DNA of 64,000 nucleotides, taken from contig CBDCCU010000014.1 of the NCBI GenBank assembly GCA_965214955.1, forward strand, positions 16,631 to 80,630, in the 5' to 3' direction. Below are positions 9,477 through 53,025 of this stretch, piece after piece; the first letter of the stretch is position 1; each line of letters opens with the position of its first letter. A program made the translations under genes and the position numbers. This DNA is from Aliikangiella sp. (GTDB lineage Bacteria; Pseudomonadota; Gammaproteobacteria; Enterobacterales; Kangiellaceae). The notes below the pieces were generated by a model that saw nothing but the letters and a program-made list of their open reading frames with translations, made no database searches and had not been told where the DNA came from.

Positions 9477-10770
9477 GAGACCGTTTAGAATTCTGTGTCA
9501 GTGAATGCTAAATATCTAAAACGTCGTCAAGACGACCTTCAAAATAAATAGCCAGTTGCGACAATGTCAAATTCCAATTTTGGATTGGCATTGTCCATTT
9601 CTTCGTCATATTCCCAATGCCAGAATACAATAATTTTAGCAGACTATTTTCATTAGGAAATGCGCCTTTGGTTTTGGTGAGTTTTCTAAACTGGCGGTGC
9701 ACCGATTCAATTGCATTGGTCGTGTAAATAACTTTGCGTATTGGCTCTGGATATTTAAAGAAAACCGACAAGTTATCCCACTTTCTGCGCCAGGATTTGA
9801 GCACAATAGGATATTGTTTGCCCCATTTAGTTTCTAACTCATCGAGCGCTTGCTCAGCCGCTTGTTTGGAAACAGCACGATAAACCGGTTTTAAGTCAGC
9901 CATAAAAGTCTTTTGATTTTTTGAAGCCACATATTTCATCGAGTTGCGAATTTGATGAATAATGCAAAGTTGTACTTCGGTATTAGGATAGCAACTATTA
10001 ATCGCTTCAGGAAAGCCTGTTAGACCATCCACACAGGCAATGAGAATGTCTTGAACACCACGATGGCTCATGTCGGTTAGCACAGATAACCAGAAATTAG
10101 CGCCTTCATTTTCTGATAAGTAAAGCCCTAATATCTCTTTTGTGCCATCAAGTTTTAGTCCGAGAACGGTATAGATGGCCTTGCTAACATAGCGTCCTTG
10201 GTCTTTCACTTTATAATGAATGGCATCGAGCCAAACAAAAGGATAGTGGCTTTCTAATGGCCGTTGTTGCCAGTTTTTAAGCTCAGGAATAAGCTTATCG
10301 GTAATATTGCTGAGTGTTGCAGTGGATATGTTGACACCATACAAATCGGTCAAATTTTGTGTAATATCTCGGTAACTCATACCATGAGAAAAAAGTGAAA
10401 GTATTTTCGTTTCGATTTCATCAGTGAGCGTTGTTTGATGCTTTTTAATGATTTGCGGCTCAAAATTACCTGCGCGATCACGAGGCGTATTGAGTTCAAA
10501 ATTACCATGAGAAGACTTAATTGTTTTGGCTGTAGTGCCATTCTTACGATTCGGTTGCTCATCATCGTCTAAATGAGCAACTAGCTCAGCATTGAGAGCC
10601 GCTTCAGTCAGCTGTTTAATCAATGGAGTAAGCACTCCACCTTTACCGGTTATTGGTTTACCTGACTGTAATTCTTTTAATGCTTTTTCTAAATCAAATG
10701 ATTTATCCATAATGTGTCATTCCTCTTTTTTAAGAGTTTAGTTGAATGACACAGAATTTCTAACACTCCC
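9477..10770 (-). mobile_element. IS256-family insertion sequence, 1294 bp, with 8-bp target duplication AACTCTGG
   Basis: Imperfect 26-bp TIRs (GAGACCGTTTAGAATTCTGTGTCAGT / GGGAGTGTTAGAAATTCTGTGTCATT). AACTCTGG at 9469-9476 and 10771-10778. Confidence 0.95.
9508..10710 (-). CDS. IS256-family (Mutator-type) DDE transposase
   Basis: WLDAI, IACVDGLTGF, VQLCIIHQIRNS and IYTTNAIES motifs; 400 aa, intact. Confidence 0.97.
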   Translation of the reverse strand: MDKSFDLEKALKELQSGKPITGKGGVLTPLIKQLTEAALNAELVAHLDDDEQPNRKNGTTAKTIKSSHGNFELNTPRDRAGNFEPQIIKKHQTTLTDEIETKILSLFSHGMSYRDITQNLTDLYGVNISTATLSNITDKLIPELKNWQQRPLESHYPFVWLDAIHYKVKDQGRYVSKAIYTVLGLKLDGTKEILGLYLSENEGANFWLSVLTDMSHRGVQDILIACVDGLTGFPEAINSCYPNTEVQLCIIHQIRNSMKYVASKNQKTFMADLKPVYRAVSKQAAEQALDELETKWGKQYPIVLKSWRRKWDNLSVFFKYPEPIRKVIYTTNAIESVHRQFRKLTKTKGAFPNENSLLKLLYSGIGNMTKKWTMPIQNWNLTLSQLAIYFEGRLDDVLDI

Positions 10771-11291
10771 AACTCTGGAGCAAGATGTTTTTCAATATAT
10801 CCCTTTCTCTTACACCAATGAATAAGTTCTCGCATGGCCTTTTGTCTATTTCGTAATGTGGTTTCGCCCATGGGACCAAGCTCTATAAAATAATCTTCGA
10901 TTCTATATTCGTTTAAATCCTTAACTGATGTGTTCTTAAAATAGGGAGCGATTTCGTTTTTTAATAAATTGGCATGTCTTATTCTATTCTTTGATGTTCT
11001 TTTTTCCTCAACAAATTCAGCCGCTTCGTAGCATGCTTTAGCTACCGAAGTACTTGCTTTAAATATATTGCTAACGATAAGACTACTTTCTTTTGATGCT
11101 TTATAAGGGATAATAAATTTTTCAATAGCTATGCGTTTAGCTTCCCCTAAATCGGAAGTGCCAAGTGATTTCTGTATATATTTTGCACGTTTACCGTTAT
11201 CAGGGTATGTCTTTAGTTTAATGTAATAGTTTTTTGACCCTGTTTGTTTATAAATATCGCCATATTCTTCAAAACCTTCGATCTTTTCCAT
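10771..11291 (-). pseudogene. Tyrosine integrase N-terminal and core-binding fragment, interrupted by IS256, catalytic domain absent
   Basis: YYIKL...KSLGTSDLGEAKRIA arm-like region and LKNEIAPYF...VKDLNEYRIEDY...TTLRNRQKAMRELIHWC SAM-like region. It lies next to a tRNA-derived att. The ORF-track C-terminus (LGVLEIL...) is read-through into the IS. Confidence 0.75.
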
Positions 11292-11376
11292 ATCCGTTTA
11301 ACCCCCTAATTTAACCATTGCGTTGTTATAGTTTATGTTATAGATGGCTCTAAAGCCAGGAATAATAAAGGGGGTA

Positions 11377-11434
11377 GGGGATTCAAAATCCCCCGCCTTC
11401 GGGTGTGAGAGTTCGAGTCTCTCCCCGGGCACCA
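11377..11434 (+). tRNA. 3' half of tRNA-Leu(CAA), truncated; att-site copy, not a functional tRNA
   Basis: GGGGA-TTCAAAA-TCCCC anticodon arm, CGCC-TTCG-GGTG variable arm, GAGAG-TTCGAGT-CTCTC T-arm, CCCGGGC-A-CCA end. No 5' acceptor strand or D-arm at the right distance. Confidence 0.88.
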
Positions 11435-11471
11435 TAACTTCATGAAAAATAAGAAGAAAATAAAAGTTGCG

Positions 11472-11495
11472 GCCGACCTTAATGTCGGTTTTTTT
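11472..11495 (+). terminator. Intrinsic terminator downstream of the tRNA fragment
   Basis: GCCGAC-CTTAAT-GTCGGT followed by a T-run. Confidence 0.75.
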
Positions 11496-11853
11496 GTGCC
11501 TGAAATTCATAGTCATGAAACTTTTTAGGCTGAATTATGTACAAATCCTTCCTTTTTCATAAGTAATAAACTTCTTCGAAAAACAGCTCCCCGGTCTATA
11601 CCCGGTCCTTTCGTCTGTGTGTATTCTGTGCGCATATGAATCCAAATTTATCCTATGAAATCCAACGTCTAAACCAAGTTGATACTATCTACCTCATCAA
11701 TTGAATATAACCAGAACCTGAGTATATTCTGGGACTCCGGTACATGTCGGTGACGTGTAGGTAATTATACTGTACCAGCCTTGTCTAATGTCTATTTTAA
11801 AGAATTACTAATTTGTGGTAATTTGTGTACAAAAAATTTAACGGGAAAGGTTG

Positions 11854-12276
11854 ATGGATCATAGAGCTGAAGCATGGGAAGAAATAAAAATTTTACAAGA
11901 TATTATTCATAAGCAAGAAGACTTGAGAACAAAGACCAAAAACTGGTGTATAGCTCTTTTCGGGGGATTATCAATAGCCTTTGCTAATTCAAATGGAAAG
12001 CTAGACTTCTTAGCTTATCTACTAGCTAGCATTATTCTTGTTTGTATATTTTGGCTTCTAGAAAATCTGCAACGCTCGATTCAAATGACAACAATTTGCC
12101 ACCGAAACTCCGTCGAAGAAAGTTTGTTAAGCGAACTAGAAAGCTACAAAGGTCCCAAAATTGGCAAAACATTCTCTGCTGGTTATAAATTCTTATCCCC
12201 TTTCAACCTTAGATTAAGTGCTGTCTATCTAGGCTTAATTATAATCGCTCTTTCTCTATCGTTTTTTCAACAATGA
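11854..12276 (+). CDS. Small membrane protein with three hydrophobic segments, first gene of the radical SAM operon
   Basis: ATG after GGAAAGG; hydrophobic segments at about aa 32-47, 53-71 and 122-139; ATGA overlap with the next gene. Confidence 0.75.
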   Translation: MDHRAEAWEEIKILQDIIHKQEDLRTKTKNWCIALFGGLSIAFANSNGKLDFLAYLLASIILVCIFWLLENLQRSIQMTTICHRNSVEESLLSELESYKGPKIGKTFSAGYKFLSPFNLRLSAVYLGLIIIALSLSFFQQ

Positions 12277-13115
12277 GAAATTTACCTAGATATATTGAAT
12301 TTGAGATCGGCTCTTATTGCAACAGACTATGTAGCTGGTGCCCGAATTCTGTAAGTGATAGAGGTCGGCTAAAGAACCACGTATCAGAGAATTTGTGGAA
12401 AAAAGTTATGAAGGAGCTAGGTGAGCTAGACTATAGTGGTTGGATTGCCCTGCATAACTATAACGAGCCTCTTCTAGATCCTTATCTATATGACAGAATA
12501 GCTGATATTCAATGTTATTCCCCAAAATCTCAAGTCGCTATTTATACGAACGGAGATTACTTAGACAAATCTGAGCTAGATAAACTCTGTCAAGTCGAAG
12601 TTAACGAAATTAGAGTTACTCTGTACCCATCAAAAAAAATGGTATCTGACAGCTCTGAATACAGGCTAAATAAATTTATTGCTAAGTTACAGATAGAAAG
12701 AGAGTTTTCTAAAAAGAAACAAACTCACCGGGGAATTGAGGTGGAAACAACTATTTTTAATACGTGCCTAAAAATAATTTCTCCTAAAATCGCAAACTAT
12801 AACAACAGAGCAGGCTCAGTTTTGGATACTAATTTTTTTCGTCATTCCCCTTGTTACCTACCAAATATTTCTGCAGCGATTGATTGGATGGGTAATGTTA
12901 AGCTTTGTTGTCAAGTATATAGCACTTCAAATAATCAAAATAATATACTAGGTAATTTAAATACTTCTAGTTTCGTAGATATTTGGCTTTCAGAGAAGTT
13001 TGCTCGCATTAGAGCCAAAATTAATCGAGGCGATTTCTCCGACACTCCGATTTGCAGGAAGTGTGATCATAAACTGAATTCGGAACAAGGGAAGATAGTG
13101 GTACATAAAGCATGA
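12273..13115 (+). CDS. Radical SAM protein with twitch/SPASM auxiliary Fe-S domain
   Basis: CNRLCSWC (CX3CX2C), NEPLL, TNGDYL; C-terminal PCYLP..DWMGNVKLCCQ..LGNL..SFVDIW..ICRKC. Confidence 0.92.
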   Translation: MRNLPRYIEFEIGSYCNRLCSWCPNSVSDRGRLKNHVSENLWKKVMKELGELDYSGWIALHNYNEPLLDPYLYDRIADIQCYSPKSQVAIYTNGDYLDKSELDKLCQVEVNEIRVTLYPSKKMVSDSSEYRLNKFIAKLQIEREFSKKKQTHRGIEVETTIFNTCLKIISPKIANYNNRAGSVLDTNFFRHSPCYLPNISAAIDWMGNVKLCCQVYSTSNNQNNILGNLNTSSFVDIWLSEKFARIRAKINRGDFSDTPICRKCDHKLNSEQGKIVVHKA

Positions 13116-13636
13116 CTATGTTTGTTCTATTGATAGGAGCTCCAGGCTCTGGTAAATCTACAATATCAAAAGAGCTATCAGAAGTATTGCCTTTTAAATG
13201 CGTAGATATGGAGCCATTTGTACGAGCAGAAAAGCGCAACCCTTTTGATTACAATGAGTTACTATCGGAAACGCAAATAGAAGGTGCGCTAATTAAGCAG
13301 TTAGATGAAGTAAATCGATTACTTTTAAAAGATAAAAATGTGATTGCATTGTTTACATATCATAGGCTTTCTTATGCTATCAGATTATTTAACGTGAAGT
13401 TAGATAAGAAACCCCAAATTTTTTTACTACATGCATCTAGAAAGGATTTGCTTGAAAGAAACTCCTCACGAGATGAAGTAGAACGAGTACCACAGAATTA
13501 TGTCAATAGATGTTATGAAGACCAAAAAACGTATCTAAATAAAAGTTCTTCGGTTGTTCATGTCCTTAATACGAGTCAACTAAATCAAAGACAATGTGTA
13601 AATCAAATAATCAAAATAATAAACCCTTCAAGTTAG
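13112..13636 (+). CDS. P-loop small-molecule/nucleotide kinase (NMP/PNK/gluconate-kinase superfamily)
   Basis: N-terminal GAPGSGKST Walker A, lid-like LLERNSSRDEVERVP, 174 aa; ATGA overlap. Confidence 0.8.
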   Translation: MTMFVLLIGAPGSGKSTISKELSEVLPFKCVDMEPFVRAEKRNPFDYNELLSETQIEGALIKQLDEVNRLLLKDKNVIALFTYHRLSYAIRLFNVKLDKKPQIFLLHASRKDLLERNSSRDEVERVPQNYVNRCYEDQKTYLNKSSSVVHVLNTSQLNQRQCVNQIIKIINPSS

Positions 13637-14907
13637 CTTTATTTGCAAAAGATCGAATTGATAAATATTTTCAAGCTGTACATGGCAAGATAGAAGATCG
13701 TTCTTATGATTCAGCAAAAGTTTTTTTCCATAAAGCGAGGTTTACAGAATTTCTACTAGGTAATGATGAAAAAGTAGTTCCTATCACTTATGAACTCTGG
13801 CCTAGCTTAAGTTGTGATGCTCGATGCGCAAAGTGTACATATAGTGTGAATCGTGCAAGGAAAGAAGCAGATAAGCTTAGCAGCTTAATTTTGGCAGATA
13901 CGAATAAACTAAAGTCACAACTAAATATTTTTAAAGAAGGGGGAGTTAATTCGATAATCATAACAGGGGGAGGCGAGCCTACTCTTCATCCTAATATCTT
14001 GGATATATGCAAATATATTTCAAATCTTGGTATGAAGTGGGGAATGTTTACTCATGGACTTCACATAAATGAAGAGCTTTCAAAGTCACTTTTACAAGCA
14101 TCACCCTCCTTCATAAGAATTTCACTTAATGCAGTAGGAGGTATGGAACATAACAAAGAGTATCGTCTCGGTGATTCAGCATACGAACTCGTAAAAAGAA
14201 ACTTGATTGAACTCGGATTGATGAATTTTAACATTGAGAGTAAAGCATCAATCGCAGCGGGTTTTTCACTTGACCCAATGTCCAATCAAGAACAATTAAA
14301 AAATATAGCAAATGAAATTGCTGATATTTTTTCTAGAAGTGAGGGGAGTGTCTCACGTTTCTCGTTTAGGCCAAAAGTTGTGTATTTTTATGCGGATGGT
14401 AGGCCAAAACATGCACAAAAACACCACAAGAGCTATTTAGATCTCTATGATTCTATTTTGAGTAATATCCAGAACCCACTAAAGGAAAAATTTGGTGACC
14501 AAATAAGAATCGAAAATAAAAAATTTCTATTTGAATCAATTGACGCTGTAAATATTCCAAAAACATGCTTATCTTTAGGCTGGACAGGACAAGTAAATCA
14601 TAATGGTGACGCATATGTTTTAAGCGAACTAAATGGTTCTCCTTGGAGTGAGTCAAGGCTTGGAAGTGTATTGGACTATTCCAATATAAAAGACTTTCTA
14701 GATAGTTCAGAAAGGATGAGTGTATTTGAGAAATACATGAGCGGCGAGCGTAGGTTGCCTGTCAATTCTAAGATTTCACACGTTGAAACTCTATTGTATG
14801 AAGTAAGGAATAGTTTTGGTGTATTTGACAAAAATGAAGTAAATGAGTTTTGGAGGTATTTGCAGATTGAGAATATTGAAAAGCCTTCAAACTGGGATTT
14901 TTTATAG
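13594..14907 (+). CDS. Radical SAM protein with degenerate (Cys-poor) SPASM-like C-terminus
   Basis: ELWPSLSCDARCAKC (CX3CX2C), IIITGGGEPTLHP, MFTHG, IRISL. Start codon uncertain (43-bp overlap). Confidence 0.9.
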   Translation: MCKSNNQNNKPFKLALFAKDRIDKYFQAVHGKIEDRSYDSAKVFFHKARFTEFLLGNDEKVVPITYELWPSLSCDARCAKCTYSVNRARKEADKLSSLILADTNKLKSQLNIFKEGGVNSIIITGGGEPTLHPNILDICKYISNLGMKWGMFTHGLHINEELSKSLLQASPSFIRISLNAVGGMEHNKEYRLGDSAYELVKRNLIELGLMNFNIESKASIAAGFSLDPMSNQEQLKNIANEIADIFSRSEGSVSRFSFRPKVVYFYADGRPKHAQKHHKSYLDLYDSILSNIQNPLKEKFGDQIRIENKKFLFESIDAVNIPKTCLSLGWTGQVNHNGDAYVLSELNGSPWSESRLGSVLDYSNIKDFLDSSERMSVFEKYMSGERRLPVNSKISHVETLLYEVRNSFGVFDKNEVNEFWRYLQIENIEKPSNWDFL

Positions 14908-16013
14908 TGAGGAAAAGAGTATTCATATATGCCGCTCCTTTTGGTTATGGACCGAGTGGTAAAGCTCTAACAATGGCAAAATACCTTTCTTCTGAAAACG
15001 AAGTCACAGTAGGTGTTTTTCAGGATGAGATTGTTGAAAGATACAATTCGGAGGCGGAAGGCTTTAAAGTTTTAAAATTAAATACGAGAGTTCCTAGTGA
15101 AACGATTAAAGCTCTAGGCTTGAATGCATATGATTATTGGATTTCTGTTATGGAGCCTAGGCTTGTCATTTATCTATCTTCAATTGGTCAACACAGCCGC
15201 ACTATATTTATTGATAGTTTAGCGCCATGGAGAGAAAAGCCAATCGATTATATATCCCCAATAAGATTGTATCTAGCGCAATATTTTCCTGGGATATTTA
15301 ACGCGATAAATGAGAATGTAGCCGAGCAAGTTGTTATTACAAAGCCTATTATTAACAATCATGGTCAATGTAAAAAAAATGACAGGCAAAAGGTCGTTTT
15401 GTCGTTCGGTGGAATTCAGTCACCTTATTGTAGCTATGAGACTTTCTCGAAATACATTGTAGATACAATAGATAGTGTAGCCAACGAATGTAATAAATTG
15501 GCTCTTGATGTAGTCGTTTTCGGTCATCAAAAGCTCATTGATGAAAGATTCGATTATAACAATATTCATATTATAGGGTGTGAAAGACAAGACGTATTTT
15601 TAGACTATTTGGCGGAGGCAAAAATATGTATATCAACACCAGGCGTAGAAACCTTTTATGAAGCCACTTCTCGTTCTACACCTATTTTCTTTTTGCCTCC
15701 TACTAATAGTACTCAGTTATTCCAATTAGTAACCTTTATGGAGTATCAGCTTAATTGTTTGATTAGTGAAAACACGTTACTAGAACTAAAAAATGCTTGT
15801 GCATCCATTGATTGGAAGCTACACCCCAAAATAATTGCTAGGATATATGACGCAAAGCAAAAACTGATTGCTTCAGAAATAAGACGAAGTATTAAATCGA
15901 TCATTTGTGATGAAAATACGTTTGTAAAACAGCTTCAACTTCAAAAGAATTTCATTCAACCGGAACTTCCTTGCGGATTGGAATGTATTCAAGAGCTACT
16001 CTGCGAACGATAA
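14907..16013 (+). CDS. GT-B fold glycosyltransferase-like protein (GT28-like C-terminus; possibly related to cytosylglucuronate synthases)
   Basis: N-terminal APFGYGPSGKA loop, LSFGG, ISTPGVETFYEA..TPIFFLP..NSTQ; TAG/GTG overlap. Confidence 0.7.
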   Translation: MRKRVFIYAAPFGYGPSGKALTMAKYLSSENEVTVGVFQDEIVERYNSEAEGFKVLKLNTRVPSETIKALGLNAYDYWISVMEPRLVIYLSSIGQHSRTIFIDSLAPWREKPIDYISPIRLYLAQYFPGIFNAINENVAEQVVITKPIINNHGQCKKNDRQKVVLSFGGIQSPYCSYETFSKYIVDTIDSVANECNKLALDVVVFGHQKLIDERFDYNNIHIIGCERQDVFLDYLAEAKICISTPGVETFYEATSRSTPIFFLPPTNSTQLFQLVTFMEYQLNCLISENTLLELKNACASIDWKLHPKIIARIYDAKQKLIASEIRRSIKSIICDENTFVKQLQLQKNFIQPELPCGLECIQELLCER

Positions 16014-16108
16014 CCAATCATAAACATTAAAAACGCTCTAATCTAACTTCTGAAAATAGGAAAACCTTCATCTAGATACCTCAAATAAAATGATAAGAAC
16101 ATGGAAAC

Positions 16109-16138
16109 AATAGATTGAATATTCACCAATCTATTTTG
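16109..16138 (+). terminator. Possible terminator of the radical SAM operon
   Basis: AATAGATTG / CAATCTATT 9-bp inverted repeat plus a short T-run; AT-rich and weak. Confidence 0.4.
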
Positions 16139-16144
16139 AGGCCT

Positions 16145-16350
16145 CACAATAAATTTAGACAGGCACTTTAAGAAAATGGATTAGTTCAACTTCGCTAGTT
16201 TTTAAATTTGGTCGTTAATTTAATGATTTACGGGCGGCTAAATCGTTGTTTCTGAACGAGTGGTGAGGTTTTTGTGGTCAATTTCTTGAATTTCAAGAAT
16301 ACCAATCCTTTGGAGTTTGCCAAGTCAGTATTTTTTTGATTAGTTTTGAT
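16145..16350. repeat. About 200-bp diverged direct repeat, copy 1 (copy 2 at about 16677-16885)
   Basis: Both copies start with AGACAGGCACTTT and share GGTCAA-TTCTTGAA-N-TTCAAGAA-TACCAA...CCAAGTCAGTATTTTT. Confidence 0.85.
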
Positions 16351-16366
16351 TGTGTGATTATTTAAG

Positions 16367-16459
16367 GACAGTTTCTAGACAGTCACTATACCCACGACAG
16401 TTTCTAGACAGTCACTATACCCACAATCACCCACACAAACAAAAATAGACAGTCATCGA
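16367..16459. repeat. 29-bp tandem duplication plus left inverted end of the Y1 element
   Basis: GACAGTTTCTAGACAGTCACTATACCCAC twice (16367-16395, 16396-16424). 16401-16454 is an imperfect inverted copy of 17960-18010. Confidence 0.88.
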
Positions 16460-16500
16460 AATTACAATATTCATTCAGAGCAAAAGTAACCCAAAAGAGA

Positions 16501-16659
16501 TTATTTTCCCTTAAAGCTAGGTTCACGTTTTTCAATAAATGCCGCTACGCCTTCTCGATAATCATGACTTCTACCTAAATGCTGCATGGCTAAACGTTCT
16601 TTTTCGAGCTGATCATTTAAACTAAAATCAAACGCGTTATGCACTAACAATTTGAATAA
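16501..16659 (-). pseudogene. 3' fragment (about 50 codons) of an enoyl-CoA hydratase/isomerase (PaaG-like crotonase)
   Basis: Manual translation: LLVHNAFDFSLNDQLEKERLAMQHLGRSHDYREGVAAFIEKREPSFKGK*. This is the crotonase C-terminal signature; no start or N-terminus. Confidence 0.85.
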
Positions 16660-16676
16660 AAATAGACAGTCATCGA

Positions 16677-16885
16677 TCTCAATAAAACGAGACAGGCACT
16701 TTTAAAAAAATAATTTTCAATTGAGCTAGGTTTTTACGCTTGGTCATTAATTTAATTATTTGTGAGGGTTAAACTATTGTTTTTGGGTGAGTAGCGAGGC
16801 ATTTTGGGTCAACTTCTTGAACTTCAAGAATACCAATTCCTTGGAGTTCACCAAGTCAGTATTTTTAAGATTTAGTTTGTTTTTT
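16677..16885. repeat. About 200-bp diverged direct repeat, copy 2, immediately 3' of the Y1 transposase gene
   Basis: Aligns by eye with 16145-16350; palindrome TTCTTGAA-C-TTCAAGAA at 16814-16830. Confidence 0.85.
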
Positions 16886-16895
16886 TATTGGTTAG

Positions 16896-17867
16896 TTAAG
16901 GACTAGCATACAACAACTTAGCTGACTTACCCCCTTTAACCCACCGCTGTTTAAGTTTGCTCGCCAAAGCCTGCATGGCTTCAATAGAGCCAACGGCTCG
17001 ATAATAGTTTTGCCGATAAGCTTTCACCTGACTCAGCCATTCATCTTGATTAAGATTAAGCCTTTGGAATATTGGGGTAAGATTGGTTGGAATACTGGCT
17101 TTGTTATCATGAACAATGGTTTTCCCCGTCCATTCCACTAATTCAATATAATCTTTTAGCTTAATGGATAATACCTTTTCTTTAATGCCCCCACTAATCG
17201 ATTCTACTGCTTGGTTTAATTGCGCTTGTGATAAGGACTTAATTCGAGTTTGAATGCTGGTATGCTCAGAATGTTCAAGCTTTTGATTAAGTCCTGCTCT
17301 AATCGGGTTTAAATCCACATAAGCCATACAAGTTAAAGCGGCTGATTCATCCAATAAAGCTTGAGAATGAAACCTAGACTCCCAAAAGTGGCCTTTCACC
17401 CCATCTTCCAAGTTACTGCGTTTAGCTAATGGCTCATTAATACAACTCATTAATCGAGAAATAGAGCCTAGCTTTTGTCTGCAAGCTTCCAGCTTGTCTT
17501 TATCACTTAAAATGGATAACCGTTTGGCTTGGGTTAAAGACTCAGCATTAGGTCGGTTTTTTCTAATCGGATATAACCTCAGCCAACGCTCAACCACTTG
17601 ACTATCAGACCATTGCCATGGAGCTTTGGGATTAAAATAAACCACTAGATGATAATGATTATGCATCACCGCATAGCTATAGACTTCAATGGCAAATAAC
17701 TCAGCTAAAAACAATATTCGTTTTTCAATCCATGCTCTTCTGTGCTCATAGGAAACTCCCGTTTCTTCATCCACGCCACACAAAAAAGCCCGTCTGACAC
17801 AACGAGACGATAAATGATAAAAGCCCGGGGTTTCGTTATCAATTAATTCAGAGCGTCTAATTGCCAT
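16896..17867 (-). CDS. Y1 HUH transposase (REP-associated / IS200-IS605 TnpA-like, long form)
   Basis: YHLSSRCVRRAFLCG, YAVMHNHYHLVV (HUH), FWESRF, YVDLNPIRAG (catalytic Tyr), DYIELVEWTG. Confidence 0.9.
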   Translation of the reverse strand: MAIRRSELIDNETPGFYHLSSRCVRRAFLCGVDEETGVSYEHRRAWIEKRILFLAELFAIEVYSYAVMHNHYHLVVYFNPKAPWQWSDSQVVERWLRLYPIRKNRPNAESLTQAKRLSILSDKDKLEACRQKLGSISRLMSCINEPLAKRSNLEDGVKGHFWESRFHSQALLDESAALTCMAYVDLNPIRAGLNQKLEHSEHTSIQTRIKSLSQAQLNQAVESISGGIKEKVLSIKLKDYIELVEWTGKTIVHDNKASIPTNLTPIFQRLNLNQDEWLSQVKAYRQNYYRAVGSIEAMQALASKLKQRWVKGGKSAKLLYASP

Positions 17868-18164
17868 GGTGGTTTGTCCTTAAACCGAGTAGTAGAGAGA
17901 TTAATCATGCTAGAACGCGCAAACAAACACAATCAGCTTATTCAGTAATTGTTGTGGGAGATTGTCTATTGTTGGTGTGGGTGATTGTGGGTATGGTGAG
18001 TGTCTGGAGATTTTAGTGCTAATTAAACCAAAGAGCGCATAGACAACTATCAAGAATAAAAAACTATTGTTGAGATTAATGTGAATTGAGTGGTATTGTT
18101 TCTTAACTTGGATGTTCCTATCATTCCCATAATTAAGAGTACATTAATGGAGAACTCTTTATAA

Positions 18165-19637
18165 ATGAGACATTGGATTGGTGCCATTGGCAGCTCGGTT
18201 TGGTTACGTAATATTACTTTAGTAGTTTTGTGGCTTGGTGTATGGCAAATTGCTCGTCTTGTTGAATTCACTGAGCATGCAAGTGTTTGGTTTCCTGCCT
18301 CAGGTTTGACATTTGCGGCTTTGTTATTCGGTGGGATAGTTGTTGTTCCTGCTATTATTTTCAGCTCAATAATTATTACTTTTTGGGCTGGCCATTATTA
18401 CAACTTGGCATTAGATACAACTGAGCTGTTAATTGGTGGTTTTTACTTTAGTTTAGCTCACATTTCTCCTTACTATCTTGGTGCTCGCCTGTTTAAGTGG
18501 AGTGTAAATTCAAAACGCTTAAATGTACCGCAATTAATTTTTATATTTATTCTTATTGCTGCTTTAAGCTCGTTGTTAACAACCTTTTTAGCCATTTCAT
18601 CTTTAGTTTATTCGAACATGATGCAGGTCGAGATGATACAGTCAACTTGGTTGCCCTTTTGGATTGGCGATTTGGCTGGTGTTATTGTTATGGGGCCTTT
18701 GTTTGTTGGTATATTTGCTTTGTTTTTTCCAAAGTCGGGAATAGATTTTAGAAAATTACCAGATATTATCTACACCCCTGCGGGTAAAAACTTTAAGTAC
18801 AAAGTATTATCAAATTTATTACTTTTAACTTTATGTATGTTGCTGGCGAAAATAGCAAATGTTCCCGAGGCACAATTTGCAATATTCTTTTTGTCGGTTA
18901 CACATATGTGGATAGCTTGCACTGAAGGACCATTTTTTAATGTGTTAAGCGTGGCTATTAGTAGTTTTTTTATTGCATTGCTAGTGCATGTTTTTGATCT
19001 GATGGAATATGCTATGGTCTACCAGTTTGCAATTATTATTGCTTCAGCTAACGCTTTATTTGGCATGGCTGTTCCTGCTTTAACAGCAGATAATCATAAA
19101 TTAAAAGAAATGATTAGTACTGATGCCTTAACCCAAGTTGCATCACATGGATATATTAAACAATGGGCAAAAATTGAAATACTAAATAGCTTAAAACTAC
19201 AACTGCCAATGGCTATGGTAGTTATTGATATTGATCACTTTAAACAAATAAACGACACGTATGGCCACAAAATAGGTGATGATACTCTTAAAAAGGTTAG
19301 CCAAAGTGCTTTGTCGTTACTGCGACCAACCGACTTAATCGGCCGTTATGGTGGTGATGAATTTGTTGTATTATTACCGAATACGACTAGTGAAGTTGGT
19401 GTTCTAATATCAAAGAGAATTTTAGAGGCTGTTAATCAGTTAGAGGTTGATGGTAACTCAATCACTTGTAGTTTTGGTGTTGCAGAAGTGCAATATAATG
19501 ATGATTTCGAAACATTGTTTGAGCGAGCCGACAGTGCTTTATATCAGGCAAAAAAAGCCGGTCGAAATTGTGTGAAATCTGCAACCGACACTGGTACATA
19601 TTTCCCTGTTGACTCAAACTTAAATCTTAATAGGTAA
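18165..19637 (+). CDS. Diguanylate cyclase with MASE1-like membrane sensor
   Basis: Multi-TM N-terminus (WFPASG, WIGDLAG), DIDHFKQIND, RPTD I-site, RYGGDEF. Confidence 0.92.
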   Translation: MRHWIGAIGSSVWLRNITLVVLWLGVWQIARLVEFTEHASVWFPASGLTFAALLFGGIVVVPAIIFSSIIITFWAGHYYNLALDTTELLIGGFYFSLAHISPYYLGARLFKWSVNSKRLNVPQLIFIFILIAALSSLLTTFLAISSLVYSNMMQVEMIQSTWLPFWIGDLAGVIVMGPLFVGIFALFFPKSGIDFRKLPDIIYTPAGKNFKYKVLSNLLLLTLCMLLAKIANVPEAQFAIFFLSVTHMWIACTEGPFFNVLSVAISSFFIALLVHVFDLMEYAMVYQFAIIIASANALFGMAVPALTADNHKLKEMISTDALTQVASHGYIKQWAKIEILNSLKLQLPMAMVVIDIDHFKQINDTYGHKIGDDTLKKVSQSALSLLRPTDLIGRYGGDEFVVLLPNTTSEVGVLISKRILEAVNQLEVDGNSITCSFGVAEVQYNDDFETLFERADSALYQAKKAGRNCVKSATDTGTYFPVDSNLNLNR

Positions 19638-20031
19638 GATTTTGCAGATGCATTAATTGTCAATAAAGCAAAGCGTTATGGTTAGTTAAATAAACAAATA
19701 GTCTCAGCTATTTTTACGTTTGATATAGCCGCGTTAGAAATTGATGGTACTAAACAGCCTTAACGATTAAAAAATTTTGTACGATAGGTTCGGAAAGCTT
19801 GTGCCAAATTGCTTTGTAATTTTTTGTAATTTTTTGTAATTTCGTCTATATATTCTTAGCAAAGATATTTTCTTTCTAAATATCATATGATTTATTAATA
19901 AAACTAAAACATACGTTATAGCTTGAGTGTCTTTTCAATCCTTGTGGAAAATTGTTTGCTTCAATTGACAGGCATTACACTATCTTTGCACTATCTTATT
20001 TTTTTGCACTACCTTATTTTAAAGAGTTACA

Positions 20032-22932
20032 GTGAGCGGAGCATACAGATCAATGAAATTCTGTAAGTATGGAGACTTTATGATACACAACAAAAGCTAT
20101 ATGTTACCTAGCCTTTGTATCAGAAGAGTGGTGATGCTTACGTTGTGTGTTTTTGGCTCCTTACTTTTTATCCTACCAAGTTATGCTTCTACAAATAATA
20201 GTGAAAGACTCTTACTGATATACTCATATCACCCAAATTTTGCTACAACCACAAAAGTTTATGATGGGTTAATGTCTCAAATTGATGGCTTAGAATTGGA
20301 TGTTGACGTTGAATTTATGGATAGCAAAGTTCTGTATACAGCTGAAAGCATGGCAAATTTTCATCAGTCATTAAGTTATAAAATTCGTAACAAAGAACCT
20401 TACGATTATATAGTAACCTCAGATGATAATGCTTTATTGTATGTTCTTGATCACCAGAATGACTTATTTGCAAATACGCCAATTATATTTCTTGGTGTTA
20501 ATAATAAAGAGCTTGCCAAGCAGCAAAACGATAACCCTTTGGTAACTGGCATTATTGAAGCGGCATCTTTCGAGAAAAACGTAACCTTAGGCAAAAAGCT
20601 TTTTCCTGATGCTGATACTATTCATTTGCTCACCGATGGTACAACTTCGGGCAAAGCCGATCTTCAAAAGCTGGCACTTATTCAGGAGCATTTTCCAGAG
20701 CTAAATTGGAATACGGTCGATTTATCAAAATACACCTGGAATGAGTTTGCAAAATCGCTATCTACAATAACTACTCAGAATGGTTTTGGTCTTCTTATTT
20801 CTGCTTATCGAGATAAACAAGAAGTACCACTAAGCTTTGATAGCTCACTTGAGCTGATAGTGAAAAATACAGCTCTGCCTATCCTTCACCCTTACGAGCA
20901 TGGAATGGGTGATGGCGTACTTGGCGGGGTGATGATCAGCCACAGGCAACAGGCTATTGAAGCAGGTAAAGTGGTTGTGGCGCTCACTCAAGGAAGTTTG
21001 ATTGCAGATATTCCAGTGCTTGAAACGAGTCCTAATGTGCCAATTTTTGATGTTCGCGAGTTAGAGAAACATTCTGTTAATCAAAGCTTTTTACCGCCTC
21101 AATCCCAGGTGATGTTTGAGAAACCCAGCTTTGCAAAACGTTATAGCTACGAAATTATCATTGCATTGCTAATCTTGCTGATGCTAATGGGCGGCTATCT
21201 TTTGAATCGCCATGTCAGAAATAAGGAGCTAAAAGCGGGAGAAAGAAAGCTCAGAGTCATCCTTGATAATATCGATAGCCATATATACCTTAAAGGTTTA
21301 GATGGTCGTTACTTGTTTGCCAATGAGGCTCTACGCAAAGAGTTTGGGTTAACGCTATCAGAGCTGATTGGTAAGACTGATTTTGATCTTTTTGAACAAG
21401 ATATTGCAGAGCAGATCACCTCCGTTGATAAGAAGGTTATTGAGAGTAACCACAAGTATTCAAACGATGAAACTTATGGCCACGGAGATGCAGAGAAAAT
21501 TGTCAGTACTACCAAAGTACCTTTAGTGAACGAGAATATGAGTGTGTATGCCCTTTGTGGAGTTTCAGTTGATATTACTAGAAGAAAACGCCGTCAGAAG
21601 CTATTAGAACAAGCTGCATACTACGATGAACTGACTGGGCTTCCTAATCGATTGAAATTTGTAGAGAGGCTTACCAAAGCAATGCGAAAGAGCCAAAAAA
21701 GCAATGAAAATATTTATATGGGCTTTTTTGATTTAGATGGATTTAAGTCTATTAATGATCAATTTGGTCATAAGGCTGGCAATGAGGTGTTGAGGATAAT
21801 TATGGGACGGGTTCACCAACAAATTGATGCGAATAAGATGGAAATGGCGCGCATTGGAGGGGACGAATTTTATATTCTCAATCAATGTTGTAAAGCAGAG
21901 CTTAGTCAGTTCGATGATATACTTGATATTGTCAAAGAGCCAATAGAGGTTCAGGGTGAAATTATTTCAATTACGGCAAGTGGAGGGGTAACAAATTGTT
22001 ATCAAGTGGGTGATGTTCAACCCGAGCAACTTTTTCGACATGCCGAACAAGCGCTGTTCTTCGCTAAAAGTCACGGTAAAAATCGAATTGAATATCACGA
22101 TATAGATGGTAAGGCTAAACAAGAAGAAGAACGAAAACAGTATATTTCTAAAGCACTAAGCAATAATGAGTTTGTACTTTATTTTCAACCAAAGGTTAGC
22201 TTAATTACTGGTGAATTAGTTGGAGCGGAAGCGCTAATTCGTTGGGAGCATCCAGAAGAGGGGTTATTGCCGCCAGCGGCGTTCTTGCCTGAAATTGAGT
22301 CTTTGGGTTTGATTAAACAGTTGGATGACTGGGTTCTTGAAGTGGCACTTAAGCACGCGGAATCTTGGTATAAGTTAGGGTTAGTTATTCCTGTTAGCGT
22401 TAATTTAAGTAATGTGTACTTTCGTCAAGCAGGTATCGACAAAATTCTTTCTAAAAAGCTGGCTCAGTTCCCTAAATTACCAACATGGATGCTTGAAATT
22501 GAAATCGTAGAAACTGGTCTCCTTGATAATTTAACTGATGTCGCTAGCATTATCGAATCATGTAAGCGGTTAGATATTCGGTTTTCACTAGATGACTTTG
22601 GTACAGGGTACTCGTCGCTTACTTATCTGCAACAATTACCAGTACATACACTTAAGGTAGATAAAAGCTTTGTTATGGATATGCTAGATAATCAAACCGA
22701 TCTAAATATATTAGAAGGTATTCTAGGGTTTTGTAAGGCGTTTGAGCTAACTTCTGTTGCCGAAGGTGTAGAAACGATTGAGCATGCCAAAAAGTTAAAA
22801 ACTATGGGTTATGAAGTTGCTCAAGGTTATGGTATTGCTCGCCCAATGCCTGTGAGCGAATTATACCACTGGATTGCTCAGTGGAAGCCTACAGAAGCAT
22901 TCTGCACAACCGAATCAGAGCATTTTTCTTAA
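20032..22932 (+). CDS. Periplasmic sensor-PAS-GGDEF-EAL protein (DGC/PDE)
   Basis: ABC-substrate-binding-like N-domain, TM, PAS, RIGGDEF, EALIRW, DDFGTGYSSL, AEGVE. Start codon uncertain. Confidence 0.92.
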   Translation: MSGAYRSMKFCKYGDFMIHNKSYMLPSLCIRRVVMLTLCVFGSLLFILPSYASTNNSERLLLIYSYHPNFATTTKVYDGLMSQIDGLELDVDVEFMDSKVLYTAESMANFHQSLSYKIRNKEPYDYIVTSDDNALLYVLDHQNDLFANTPIIFLGVNNKELAKQQNDNPLVTGIIEAASFEKNVTLGKKLFPDADTIHLLTDGTTSGKADLQKLALIQEHFPELNWNTVDLSKYTWNEFAKSLSTITTQNGFGLLISAYRDKQEVPLSFDSSLELIVKNTALPILHPYEHGMGDGVLGGVMISHRQQAIEAGKVVVALTQGSLIADIPVLETSPNVPIFDVRELEKHSVNQSFLPPQSQVMFEKPSFAKRYSYEIIIALLILLMLMGGYLLNRHVRNKELKAGERKLRVILDNIDSHIYLKGLDGRYLFANEALRKEFGLTLSELIGKTDFDLFEQDIAEQITSVDKKVIESNHKYSNDETYGHGDAEKIVSTTKVPLVNENMSVYALCGVSVDITRRKRRQKLLEQAAYYDELTGLPNRLKFVERLTKAMRKSQKSNENIYMGFFDLDGFKSINDQFGHKAGNEVLRIIMGRVHQQIDANKMEMARIGGDEFYILNQCCKAELSQFDDILDIVKEPIEVQGEIISITASGGVTNCYQVGDVQPEQLFRHAEQALFFAKSHGKNRIEYHDIDGKAKQEEERKQYISKALSNNEFVLYFQPKVSLITGELVGAEALIRWEHPEEGLLPPAAFLPEIESLGLIKQLDDWVLEVALKHAESWYKLGLVIPVSVNLSNVYFRQAGIDKILSKKLAQFPKLPTWMLEIEIVETGLLDNLTDVASIIESCKRLDIRFSLDDFGTGYSSLTYLQQLPVHTLKVDKSFVMDMLDNQTDLNILEGILGFCKAFELTSVAEGVETIEHAKKLKTMGYEVAQGYGIARPMPVSELYHWIAQWKPTEAFCTTESEHFS

Positions 22933-22989: not shown

Positions 22990-23334
22990 ATGCAAGCAGA
23001 AAAAAGAGAGCACCCACGTTTTGCATCTTCTGATTTAAGTGCGGTAATTACTATTTCACCTCCACCGCCTGATGAACTCATTTCGCTTGAAGGCACTGTG
23101 TTAGATATGAGCCAAAAGGGAATTAGAATTAAGTTAAATGCTGCTATGCCATGTGATATTCCAACCAGCAAAATTCTTATCAATATTGTTATGCCAAAAT
23201 CGGGGTTACCTATAAAAATTCATGGTTTTATTCGGCATATGAGTAATGAGTCGGAATGTGGTATTAATTATCATAATGATCACAGCGATGATGAACTCGA
23301 AAATTTGCTATTTGAGTGTGTTAAATTGCATTAG
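22990..23334 (+). CDS. PilZ-domain c-di-GMP receptor
   Basis: RxxxR (REHPR) and DxSxxG (DMSQKG) motifs. Confidence 0.85.
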   Translation: MQAEKREHPRFASSDLSAVITISPPPPDELISLEGTVLDMSQKGIRIKLNAAMPCDIPTSKILINIVMPKSGLPIKIHGFIRHMSNESECGINYHNDHSDDELENLLFECVKLH

Positions 23335-52100: not shown

Positions 52101-52217
52101 GTGTTGGTCATGTGGGCTAACACCTAATTCACACACTGTTCGACACGACTATCAGGGTGCTTATGAATGAGCTTAATCATCATAGGTTGATAGTTGGGAA
52201 TAGTGGAGGCAAAACCC
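52101..52217 (+). ncRNA. rpsB 5' leader (S2 autoregulatory, t44-like)
   Basis: ACACAC..CGACAC..GGGTGC and TGGAGGCAAAACCC conserved blocks; GACTATCA/TGATAGTT stem. Confidence 0.75.
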
Positions 52218-52239: not shown

Positions 52240-53025
52240 ATGGCAAAAGTCACTATGCGTGATATGCTTCAGGCGGGTGTTCACTTTGGACACAGAACCC
52301 GTTTCTGGAACCCAAAAATGAAGCCGTATATCTTCGGCGCAAGAAACAAAATTCATATTATTAACTTAGAGCACTCGCTACCGATGTTTAACGATGCGTT
52401 AAACTACCTTAGCTCTGTTGCGGCAAAAAAAGGCAAAATCCTTTTTGTTGGTACTAAGCGTAGTGCTAGCAAAATTGTTCGCGAAGAAGCAATCCGTTGC
52501 GATCAGTTCTTTGTTGATAAGCGTTGGTTAGGCGGTATGCTAACTAACTATAAAACCATTCGTCAGTCGATTAACCGTTTAAAAGAGCTTGAAAAGCAAA
52601 GTGAAGACGGTACTTTCGAAAAGTTAACTAAGAAAGAAGCTTTATTATTAAGCCGTGAAATGGCTAAGTTAGAAGCCAGTATTGGTGGTATTAAAAACAT
52701 GGGTGGTCTTCCAGACGCACTTTTTGTTATTGACGCTGACCATGAGCACATTGCTATTTCGGAAGCACGCAAATTAGGTATTCCTGTTATTTCTGTGGTT
52801 GATAGTAACTCTAACCCAGATGGTGTTGATTATGTTATCCCTGGTAACGACGATGCTATTCGTGCCATTCAACTTTATCTTTCTGCTGCGGCTGACACCA
52901 TTATTGATGGTCGTCAAAGCGTGGCTACAGCACCAAAAGCTGAAGCTTCAAGCGATGATGAGTTTGTTGAAGAAGCTAAGCAAGAAAAAACTGAAGAAGT
53001 TAAAGAAGAAGCAAAAGAAGATTAA
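52240..53025 (+). CDS. rpsB: 30S ribosomal protein S2
   Basis: [29 protein letters not shown]. Confidence 0.99.

Follow-up and report, generated by a model that had tools for sequence, protein, structure and literature searches.

A rare, mobile cassette of two radical SAM enzymes, a kinase and a CGA-synthase-like glycosyltransferase: a previously undescribed, probably nucleoside- or glycoside-type biosynthetic unit, possibly of chemical defence

The 64,000-nucleotide stretch of an Aliikangiella sp. contig that we analyzed (CBDCCU010000014.1, positions 16,631 to 80,630 of the forward strand; hereafter the window) carries five closely packed genes, g1 to g5, of which the last four recur as a cassette in distant bacteria. 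They encode a twitch radical S-adenosylmethionine (SAM) enzyme similar to BtrN, a P-loop kinase, a second radical SAM enzyme similar to DesII and BlsE, and a glycosyltransferase related to CGA synthase. Only three runs of unspecified type (assembled contigs), all from one organism, contain the cassette sequence. The open reading frames (ORFs) were called as follows:

11854-12276, plus strand: g1, 140-141 aa, membrane protein (an in-frame TTG at 11851 lies ahead of the ATG)
12273-13115, plus strand: g2, 280 aa, BtrN-like twitch radical SAM enzyme
13112-13636, plus strand: g3, 174 aa, P-loop kinase
13594-14907, plus strand: g4, 437 aa, DesII/BlsE-like radical SAM enzyme
14907-16013, plus strand: g5, 368 aa, GTG start, CGA-synthase-like glycosyltransferase

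An earlier note on this DNA had described five co-oriented, overlapping genes for a membrane protein, a radical SAM enzyme, a kinase, a second radical SAM enzyme and a glycosyltransferase. The ORFs are present on the plus strand with the coordinates and all four overlaps that it gave, and our domain and fold searches bear out its domain calls. The g1/g2 and g2/g3 junctions both read ATGA, g3 and g4 overlap by 43 nt, and g4 and g5 meet in TAGTG, a 1-nt overlap with the GTG start of g5. The purine-rich sequence GGGAAAGG just 5' of the g1 start may be a ribosome-binding site. The note had also suggested comparing base composition and codon bias with other genes. In this comparison the cassette genes were slightly AT-richer than a set of 14 long ORFs elsewhere in the window (GC 0.33-0.36 vs 0.388 +/- 0.021), while GC at third codon positions took no distinctive value.

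Two positions within the cassette share a 22-nt direct repeat of 95% identity that resembles TCAAATAATCAAAATAATAYAC, one copy lying inside g2 (12927-12948) and the other at the 5' end of g4 (13603-13624), so that both proteins carry the peptide SNNQNN. It could be a scar of recombination or duplication, or slippage-prone low-complexity sequence.

Orthologues of g2 to g5 were found by blastp in four further loci (E 1e-14 to 1e-120) and by hidden Markov model (HMM) matches in others. In all, the orthologues adjoin one another in about 15 independent loci, which come from at least eight bacterial phyla. The g4 clade comprises 15 clusters, with 38-43% identity, among 5.8 billion proteins, and wherever enough DNA was available g4 was accompanied by g2, g3 and g5. 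This conservation is far beyond chance. Conservation of the gene order in distant genomes, which had been proposed as a check, is evident in two fixed orders and one rearranged cyanobacterial form, and one locus has no kinase (L and P numbers are our working labels for loci and proteins):

g2-g3-g4-g5: the window, L004, L007, L179, L010 (Flavipsychrobacter), L008 and L011 (Nitriliruptoraceae), and L017 (Anaerolineae, with g2 and g4 broken)
g5-g2-g3-g4: L012 (Armatimonadetes), L013 (Fibrobacteria), L096, L097, L098 and probably L016 (Verrucomicrobia)
MT21-g4-g5-APH-GT61-g2-g3: L001-3 (cyanobacteria)
g2-g4-g5, without the kinase: L178

The description as a five-gene operon therefore holds in that the five genes are real, but the conserved unit consists of the four genes g2 to g5, with g1 as an accessory. 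What precedes g2 varies between loci. This slot is taken by g1 in the window and in L093, by DUF4062 proteins weakly matching TIR_2 in L007 and L179 (mutual identity only 36%), and by unrelated proteins in L004 and L010.

The cassette is sporadic across phyla, very rare and horizontally mobile. Searches of IMG/VR with g4 and g5 patterns returned no relatives, the plasmid collection contained no match to the cassette, and phage records yielded only distant matches to the radical SAM core; with no cassette copy in the phage and plasmid collections, we rejected an origin from a phage or plasmid. About 150 further loci encode distant g4-like radical SAM proteins (<32% identity) without g2, g3 and g5, and these were excluded from inference.

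In the Anaerolineae metagenome-assembled genome (L017, 6567-9125), g2 and g4 are broken up into several ORFs, which reflects either frameshifts or pseudogenisation, or an assembly error. They lie beside an RHS toxin that carries an RNase A domain of the CdiA type. In two DPANN archaea (L014, 64-5367; L015, 6981-12157), a g4-like domain forms the C-terminal half of proteins of 793 and 752 aa, followed by a conserved 960-aa protein that has a NAGPA (phosphodiester glycosidase) domain in the L014 copy. This archaeal module differs from the cassette and is possibly glycan-related.

The strongest link of the cassette to a characterized enzyme is that of g2 to BtrN (PDB 4m7s, E 1.1e-27 in two co-linear stretches), a sugar/cyclitol dehydrogenase that had been missed in the earlier note. 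BtrN is the 2-deoxy-scyllo-inosamine dehydrogenase of butirosin biosynthesis and the founding member of the twitch radical SAM dehydrogenases. g2 matches the Pfam families Radical_SAM and SPASM. Its CX3CX2C motif (C16/C20/C23) is positioned as in BtrN, and C194, C212, C261 and C264 align with the four auxiliary-cluster cysteines of BtrN; all seven cluster cysteines are invariant in 14 orthologues. g2 thus shares with BtrN its size as well as both sets of cysteines, and has the makeup of a twitch radical SAM enzyme (CX3CX2C plus four auxiliary cysteines in ~250-280 aa). By this similarity it is predicted to oxidize a secondary alcohol of a sugar or cyclitol to a ketone. Unlike BtrN, it has an extra adjacent cysteine (C213), and the BtrC- and BtrS-type partners of 2-deoxystreptamine synthesis are absent from the cassette, which makes an aminocyclitol of that pathway an unlikely substrate.

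In g4, the only invariant cysteines of a 15-sequence alignment are C74, C78 and C81, with none that would ligate an auxiliary cluster; a C-terminal NWDFL motif is kept in nearly all of the 15 sequences. DesII and BlsE were the sole solved relatives in a single-sequence search against the PDB and the top matches in a profile search (E 5.7e-10 and 1e-7, respectively). When the AlphaFold2 model of g4 (pLDDT 88) was searched with Foldseek, ranks 1-6 were all DesII (E 2e-13), at an identity of about 15% and a TM-score of about 0.56, and SuiB, anSME and ChlB ranked after it. DesII, the TDP-4-amino-4,6-dideoxyglucose deaminase/dehydrogenase of desosamine synthesis, acts on a nucleotide-sugar. It is the best match of g4 in both fold and profile and, like g4, a single-cluster radical SAM enzyme (about 440-490 aa for the two). 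The two differ in that g4 carries its own C-terminal NWDFL and has no TDP-sugar pathway genes of the DesI and DesV types alongside. From these comparisons, g4 is predicted to be a single-cluster radical SAM enzyme that acts on a sugar ring by elimination, deoxygenation or decarboxylation.

The glycosyltransferase g5 matched no Pfam family. Its match to the NCBIfam model TIGR04467 (CGA_synthase; 29.6 bits, E 3.8e-7) is co-linear (g5 70-273, model 68-280), and 69 of 73 sampled members of its family match the same model, with a best E-value of 2.4e-39. An exhaustive HMMER search gave 1310 representative relatives. The AlphaFold2 model (pLDDT 94.9) has the two-Rossmann GT-B fold, and its top Foldseek matches were GT1 enzymes acting on small molecules (SpnP, SpnG, CalG3, YjiC, the macrolide glycosyltransferase 2iya and plant UGTs), with E-values of about 1e-10 and TM-scores of at most 0.66; YjiC and UGT109A1 were also matched in a profile search. 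Residues G15-P16, D103, G168-G169, P245-G246, E252 and L263-P264-P265-x-N267-x-x-Q270 are invariant or nearly so. In both fold and donor-binding loops, g5 is a GT-B small-molecule GT1 enzyme, and the acceptor is predicted to be a small molecule of nucleobase type.

Domain fusions within the g5 family bear on the acceptor. Four representative g5-like proteins of about 740-750 aa (P0107, P0128, P0166, P0182) are fused to a full adenosine deaminase domain, which points to purine or nucleoside substrates, and in P0081 a g5-like domain is fused to a radical SAM domain. On the basis of these fusions, we would argue that the family uses nucleobase or nucleoside substrates and works with a radical SAM partner.

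Two further arrangements were seen around g5-like proteins. In L090 (8001-10220), a fusion of a g5-like domain to adenosine deaminase stands alone, followed by a conserved 208-aa protein; fusions of this kind may be an uncharacterized family of purine-glycoside enzymes. L174 (4518-10451) encodes a distant g5-like glycosyltransferase fused to a radical SAM protein that is not g4-like, and in L175 (5373-10447) the corresponding two genes are adjacent. Both loci have, in divergent arrangement, a conserved protein of about 615 aa and a Methyltransf_24 gene. These two loci represent a second conserved module around the g5-type glycosyltransferase family.

Pfam and NCBIfam models place g3 among the P-loop kinases of the AAA_18/AAA_33/shikimate-kinase type, and there is a weak PDB match to PSTK. 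The Walker A residues G9, P11, G14 and K15 are invariant in 13 orthologues, as are the lid arginines R116, R120 and R133, and g3 is predicted to be a small-molecule or nucleotide kinase. The product of g1 has an N-terminal amphipathic helix and about three hydrophobic segments. Its match to the Pfam family 8xMP (PF24838) is weak (20.9 bits, E 3.4e-4, gathering threshold 30 bits), near full-length and co-linear (g1 10-134, model positions 2-131 of 136), and a weak match to the PADLOC model PDC-M50A was also obtained (E 2.7e-5). No homologue of g1 was found by blastp in four cassette loci. Its single database relative, P0187 (61% identity), is directly followed by a g2 orthologue (54% identity), and we regard g1 as a lineage-specific accessory gene outside the conserved core.

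Around the core, the cassettes carry varying tailoring genes. In L013 and L016, g3 and a class I SAM methyltransferase form a single protein, and protein length leads us to infer the same fusion in L097 (393 aa) and L098 (371 aa). An SDR gene lies inside or flush with the cassette in L016 and L097, and a TauD gene in L096 and in L177 (Rhodovulum), which also has a second g4 paralogue. L001 combines an FkbM methyltransferase, an APH kinase and a GT61 glycosyltransferase with the cassette. A NodU-like carbamoyltransferase is encoded divergently next to the cassette of L096 and, in L007, about 3.6 kb upstream on the opposite strand. Extra decorating enzymes around one core are typical of biosynthetic clusters.

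Genes of defence and conflict systems are neighbours of the cassette in five to six loci. In L010 a type III restriction-modification system follows directly downstream, and L007 has a ThsB-like TIR protein and a caspase nearby. The neighbours in L096 are PDC-S39 (E 5e-154), an Mrr-TPR protein and a DrmD/BrxH-like SNF2-kinase (with weaker matches to DpdE models). L004 has a DEAD helicase with SUKH, an AbiEii-like protein, a WYL protein and PIF1-TOTE, L017 an RHS-RNase toxin, L013 an Mrr-like nuclease and L098 an integrase fragment. The proximity to defence genes envisaged for the cassette is thus found in these loci, but no such gene lies beside the cassette in the window.

In L004 (147-7669) and on the contig of P0013, a four-gene module lies beside the cassette, in opposite orientations. 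It encodes proteins of ~320-350 aa, 483-485 aa (SUKH-like), 340-425 aa and 1278-1477 aa (DEAD helicase), and the g4 proteins of the two loci are each only about 38-42% identical to that of the window. The module could act together with the cassette, or it could be a defence system that happens to lie next to it.

Residence in loci for O-antigen, capsule or flagellin glycosylation, which the earlier note had named as grounds for abandoning its proposal, was not seen. In about 13 of 15 loci we saw no Wzx/Wzy protein, ABC exporter, polyprenyl-phosphate transferase or nucleotide-sugar synthase within the cassette or beside it, and no genes for the export or initiation of surface polysaccharides or for nucleotide-sugar synthesis were seen in the window or adjoining the cassettes of L004, L007, L010, L013, L017 and L096. 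L001 (GT61, with its FkbM methyltransferase) and L008 (GT2) have nothing of this kind beyond glycan-type glycosyltransferases. The note had recognized no precursor-peptide ORF, and this is borne out by a cross-locus comparison of all ORFs of 18-130 aa lying no more than 2 kb from any of 12 cassettes, in which none was conserved; the only match between loci was an antisense shadow of g2. The combination of variable tailoring enzymes with the lack of a conserved precursor peptide speaks for a small-molecule pathway.

A paralogue of EF-G is encoded upstream of the Nitriliruptoraceae cassette. We considered it as a ribosome-protection (resistance) gene, which would have hinted at the ribosome as the target, and dropped this candidate, as it scores like an ordinary EF-G, with 714 bits on an EF-G subfamily model and lies far below the cut-offs for tetracycline-protection proteins.

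Of the characterized systems, the pathways to blasticidin S and mildiomycin come closest in enzyme content. BlsD and MilC are cytosylglucuronate synthases, MilC accepts (hydroxymethyl)cytosine, and the radical SAM enzymes BlsE and MilG act on the pyranosyl nucleoside. The lead to BlsD and BlsE given in the earlier note was well founded: g5 and its relatives belong with the CGA-synthase model, and the closest solved relatives of g4 are DesII and BlsE. As in these pathways, a GT1 enzyme of the CGA-synthase family stands beside a radical SAM enzyme related to BlsE, and the implied logic would be the same, a hexopyranosyl nucleoside being formed first and radical chemistry then taking place on its sugar. 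The differences are considerable. The window lacks a BlsM/MilB-type hydrolase, an aminotransferase, an arginine aminomutase and peptide-ligation genes, and specifically between 11.3 and 16.9 kb we found no BlsM/MilB-type hydrolase and no gene for downstream amination or peptide ligation. DesII is a closer relative of g4 than BlsE is, and g4 has no cysteines for an auxiliary cluster. The cassette contains a kinase and a BtrN-like enzyme in addition, its hosts are not actinomycete antibiotic producers, and it is mobile and often located in defence islands. As the equivalog cut-offs are missed widely and the partner genes are absent, the cassette is not a member of the blasticidin/mildiomycin-type pathways.

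The second comparison is with prokaryotic viperins, which pair with nucleotide kinases, make 3'-deoxy-3',4'-didehydro-nucleoside triphosphates and protect against phage. Shared features are the pairing of a radical SAM enzyme with a P-loop kinase, the location in defence islands and the plausibility of a radical elimination on a sugar; the cassette differs from pVip systems by its glycosyltransferase and second radical SAM enzyme. g4 scored 33.2 bits (E 2.8e-8) on the viperin model NF038283, which has a cut-off of 180, and the match covers only the radical SAM core (73-181), as does that to PADLOC pVip (E 1e-10). In Foldseek searches, viperin-like structures appeared from rank 20 (TMq 0.42-0.45). 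On model score and fold rank we rejected g4 as a viperin, in agreement with the earlier view that neither radical SAM enzyme is one. The analogy to the viperin-kinase pair, which had nevertheless been drawn, comes down to generic similarity of P-loop and radical SAM cores.

No PADLOC, NCBIfam or Pfam model describes the cassette. With PADLOC v2, g2 and g5 had no match, g3 and g4 only weak generic ones (pVip-kinase and pVip), and g1 only that to PDC-M50A. The literature searches returned no paper on the cassette; a conflict-systems paper (eLife 2020) covers only unrelated peptide-modifying SPASM enzymes. Its designation as undescribed thus stands with respect to these models and the literature searched, and we describe it as a compact biosynthetic cassette of nucleoside or glycoside type, possibly serving chemical defence.

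Our preferred reading, which we hold to be slightly better than an even bet, is that g2 to g5 form a mobile small-molecule cassette making a radical-tailored, phosphorylated glycoside, likely a hexopyranosyl nucleoside, that is used in conflict. The closest characterized enzymes, BtrN, DesII/BlsE and CGA synthase, all tailor antibiotic sugars. What the data show are the enzyme families, the intact catalytic motifs, the conservation of the cassette and its genomic surroundings; the sequence of reactions, the acceptor, the product and its function are inferred, as is the action as chain terminator, toxin or second messenger proposed in the earlier note. The most economical scheme would be the following. 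g5 would join a hexose derived from a nucleotide-sugar to a small acceptor, most probably a nucleobase, to give a hexopyranosyl nucleoside, as do BlsD and MilC. g4 would abstract a hydrogen from the sugar and so initiate an elimination, deoxygenation or decarboxylation, g2 would oxidize a ring hydroxyl to a ketone, and g3 would phosphorylate a hydroxyl, giving either a nucleotide-like product or a cryptic or self-protective phospho-intermediate. g1 could have a role in export, in immunity or as an effector, and the DUF4062/TIR-like proteins of the first slot might supply the hydrolase in some lineages. With no base-releasing hydrolase or nucleotide-sugar gene at hand, donor and acceptor would be drawn from central metabolism. 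The mobility and rarity of the cassette and its defence-island contexts make a role of the product in conflict most likely, as antiphage defence or as an antibiotic.

Several observations weigh against this reading. Both equivalog models are missed by a wide margin, by g5 with 29.6 bits on TIGR04467 (cut-off 300) and by g4 with 28.5 bits (E 1e-6) on the BlsE model TIGR04466 (cut-off 400). The window contains neither a BlsM/MilB-type nucleobase-releasing enzyme nor a gene for nucleotide-sugar synthesis, which makes the acceptor and donor named above guesses. The kinase is absent from L178. The cyanobacterial and Nitriliruptoraceae copies lie among housekeeping genes, together with GT61 or GT2, distant pairs of g5-like and radical SAM proteins are found near polysaccharide-type genes, and the flanks of the cassette in the window hold cyclic di-GMP (c-di-GMP) genes, with no defence gene adjoining.

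An alternative that we consider possible, though improbable, is a strict antiphage system that makes a signalling or toxic nucleotide only upon infection, with the gene in the first slot as a sensor or as an effector, for example a membrane-disrupting one. The defence-island surroundings of five to six loci speak for it, and a conserved core with a variable first slot, taken by g1, DUF4062/TIR-like proteins, a 270-aa protein and others, is typical defence architecture; but the slot-1 genes are not homologous to each other, and the type B cassettes carry tailoring enzymes rather than effectors. The weak matches of g1 to PDC-M50A and 8xMP and of g4 and g3 to the pVip and pVip-kinase models point the same way, yet g2 to g5 reach no PADLOC model convincingly and the window is without defence neighbours. 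We give a similarly low chance to a combined form, in which infection triggers the synthesis of a hexopyranosyl nucleotide analogue, a ribosome blocker like blasticidin or a polymerase poison, and the swappable first genes (an 8xMP-like membrane protein, or TIR-like DUF4062 proteins) act as sensor, precursor supplier or effector. In that form the cassette would be a new class of chemical immune system and, after the viperins, the second known family of synthases for antiviral nucleotide analogues, and it would link nucleoside-antibiotic chemistry to phage defence. It is unlikely that the cassette instead provides cell-surface glycoconjugates with an unusual sugar, the radical SAM enzymes tailoring a nucleoside diphosphate-sugar and g5 transferring it to a glycan, lipid or protein. 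DesII, the top fold match of g4, does act on a nucleotide-sugar, but in structure g5 comes nearest to GT1 enzymes for small molecules, and the CGA synthase of its family model has a nucleobase acceptor; the adenosine deaminase fusions also speak against this alternative. Glycan-related genes occur in places: GT61 and the FkbM methyltransferase in the cyanobacterial cassette, GT2 and NUDIX genes near L008, a GT2/pyruvyl-transferase gene and an epimerase near distant pairs of g5-like and radical SAM proteins, and the NAGPA-domain protein that follows the archaeal proteins with a g4-like C-terminal half. Set against them are the roughly 13 of 15 loci without a Wzx/Wzy protein, polyprenyl-phosphate glycosyltransferase, ABC exporter or nucleotide-sugar synthase, and the extreme rarity and mobile, defence-island context, which fit an accessory conflict trait better.

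Two further explanations have very little probability. In the first, a modified base or sugar would be installed in DNA or RNA and serve self-marking alongside restriction-like neighbours. Such neighbours exist, namely the type III restriction-modification system of L010, the Mrr-like nucleases of L013 and L096 and the DrmD/BrxH-like helicase, and the acceptance of (hydroxymethyl)cytosine by MilC would suit this role; but the neighbours vary between loci, the window has no nuclease partner, and the cassette has no conserved partner of transglycosylase, DNA-binding or polymerase type. Phages, in which hypermodification pathways are common, yielded no copy either. Least probable of all, and rejected here for want of a conserved small ORF and for the similarity of g2 to BtrN, is the maturation of a ribosomally synthesized and post-translationally modified peptide (RiPP) by SPASM-type radical SAM enzymes, a glycosyltransferase and a kinase. 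The SPASM-family domain of g2, weak NCBIfam matches of g2 and g4 to peptide maturases and the appearance of SuiB, anSME and ChlB behind DesII in the Foldseek results for g4 would be in line with it. However, none of the 12 cassettes compared has a conserved small ORF within 2 kb, g4 lacks auxiliary-cluster cysteines, and g2 is a 280-aa BtrN-type twitch protein (E 1e-27) with one auxiliary cluster and no leader-binding domain of the RiPP recognition element type.

If the preferred reading of a conflict-related, radical-tailored glycoside holds, a sugar-modified nucleoside or nucleotide would be made by chemistry whose only examples to date come from antibiotic pathways of actinomycetes (butirosin, desosamine, blasticidin), and this chemistry would be mobile among at least eight bacterial phyla, often in defence islands. 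A minimal and easily expressed pathway would then lead to a new natural product scaffold and to new radical SAM reactions, the g4 family with its about 15 known clusters being recognizable by the distinctive NWDFL C-terminus. Possibly the cassette would also be a second family of synthases for antiviral small molecules besides the viperins. The about 1300 representative clusters of the g5-like family, some of them fused to adenosine deaminase, suggest, moreover, that nucleobase glycosylation is far wider than the few known antibiotic pathways imply.

The cassette had been placed between an integrase/tRNA attachment (att) remnant and transposon debris, and annotation of the flanks confirmed this setting:

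9508-10710, minus strand: IS256-family transposase (Transposase_mut, Pfam E 5.5e-100)
10689-11291, minus strand: N-terminal integrase fragment, 200 aa, with a weak Phage_int_SAM_3 match, abutting and overlapping the IS256-family transposase
11355-11434, plus strand: tRNA-Leu(CAA) as called by ARAGORN
11471-11490: terminator-like hairpin downstream of the tRNA fragment
16014-18018: repeat-rich non-coding stretch with a multi-copy Y1-transposase-like gene, downstream of g5
16896-17867, minus strand: the Y1-transposase-like gene, 323 aa, with a weak Y1_Tnp match

Read by eye, the 5' half of the ARAGORN call (acceptor and D-arm region) is not tRNA-like, and Rfam reports no tRNA at 11355-11434, either at E 0.1 or at the gathering threshold. 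The element is probably the remnant of an att site and comprises some 57 nt from the 3' part of a tRNA. A direct repeat of this fragment was sought within 11200-20000, including downstream of g5, and not found; with no second att copy in this range, the borders of the island are undefined. With a threshold of E 0.1, Rfam likewise gave no riboswitch or other RNA element over 11000-17000, a range that takes in the sequence upstream of g1.

The stretch after g5 contains a perfect 29-nt tandem duplication (16367-16424) and, at 16236-16351 and 16767-16882, direct repeats of 116 nt. The Y1-transposase-like gene is bracketed by inverted repeats of 50 nt (16393-16442 and 17969-18018). The 90% cluster of its protein has about 10 near-identical members, located on further contigs that apparently belong to the same assembly. 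Just downstream lies the c-di-GMP cluster, comprising a MASE1-GGDEF protein (18165-19637), a PAS-GGDEF-EAL protein with a periplasmic-binding domain (20032-22932) and a PilZ protein (22990-23334).

Elsewhere in the window, the SSB protein has no database relative at 90% identity. A t44 small RNA (Rfam RF00127, 69 bits) was detected at 52112-52215, just upstream of a 261-aa ORF (52240-53025) which we take to be rpsB, a reading that would make a low-GC gammaproteobacterium the probable source; the ORFs that follow, unannotated here, resemble the tsf-pyrH-frr-bamA region.

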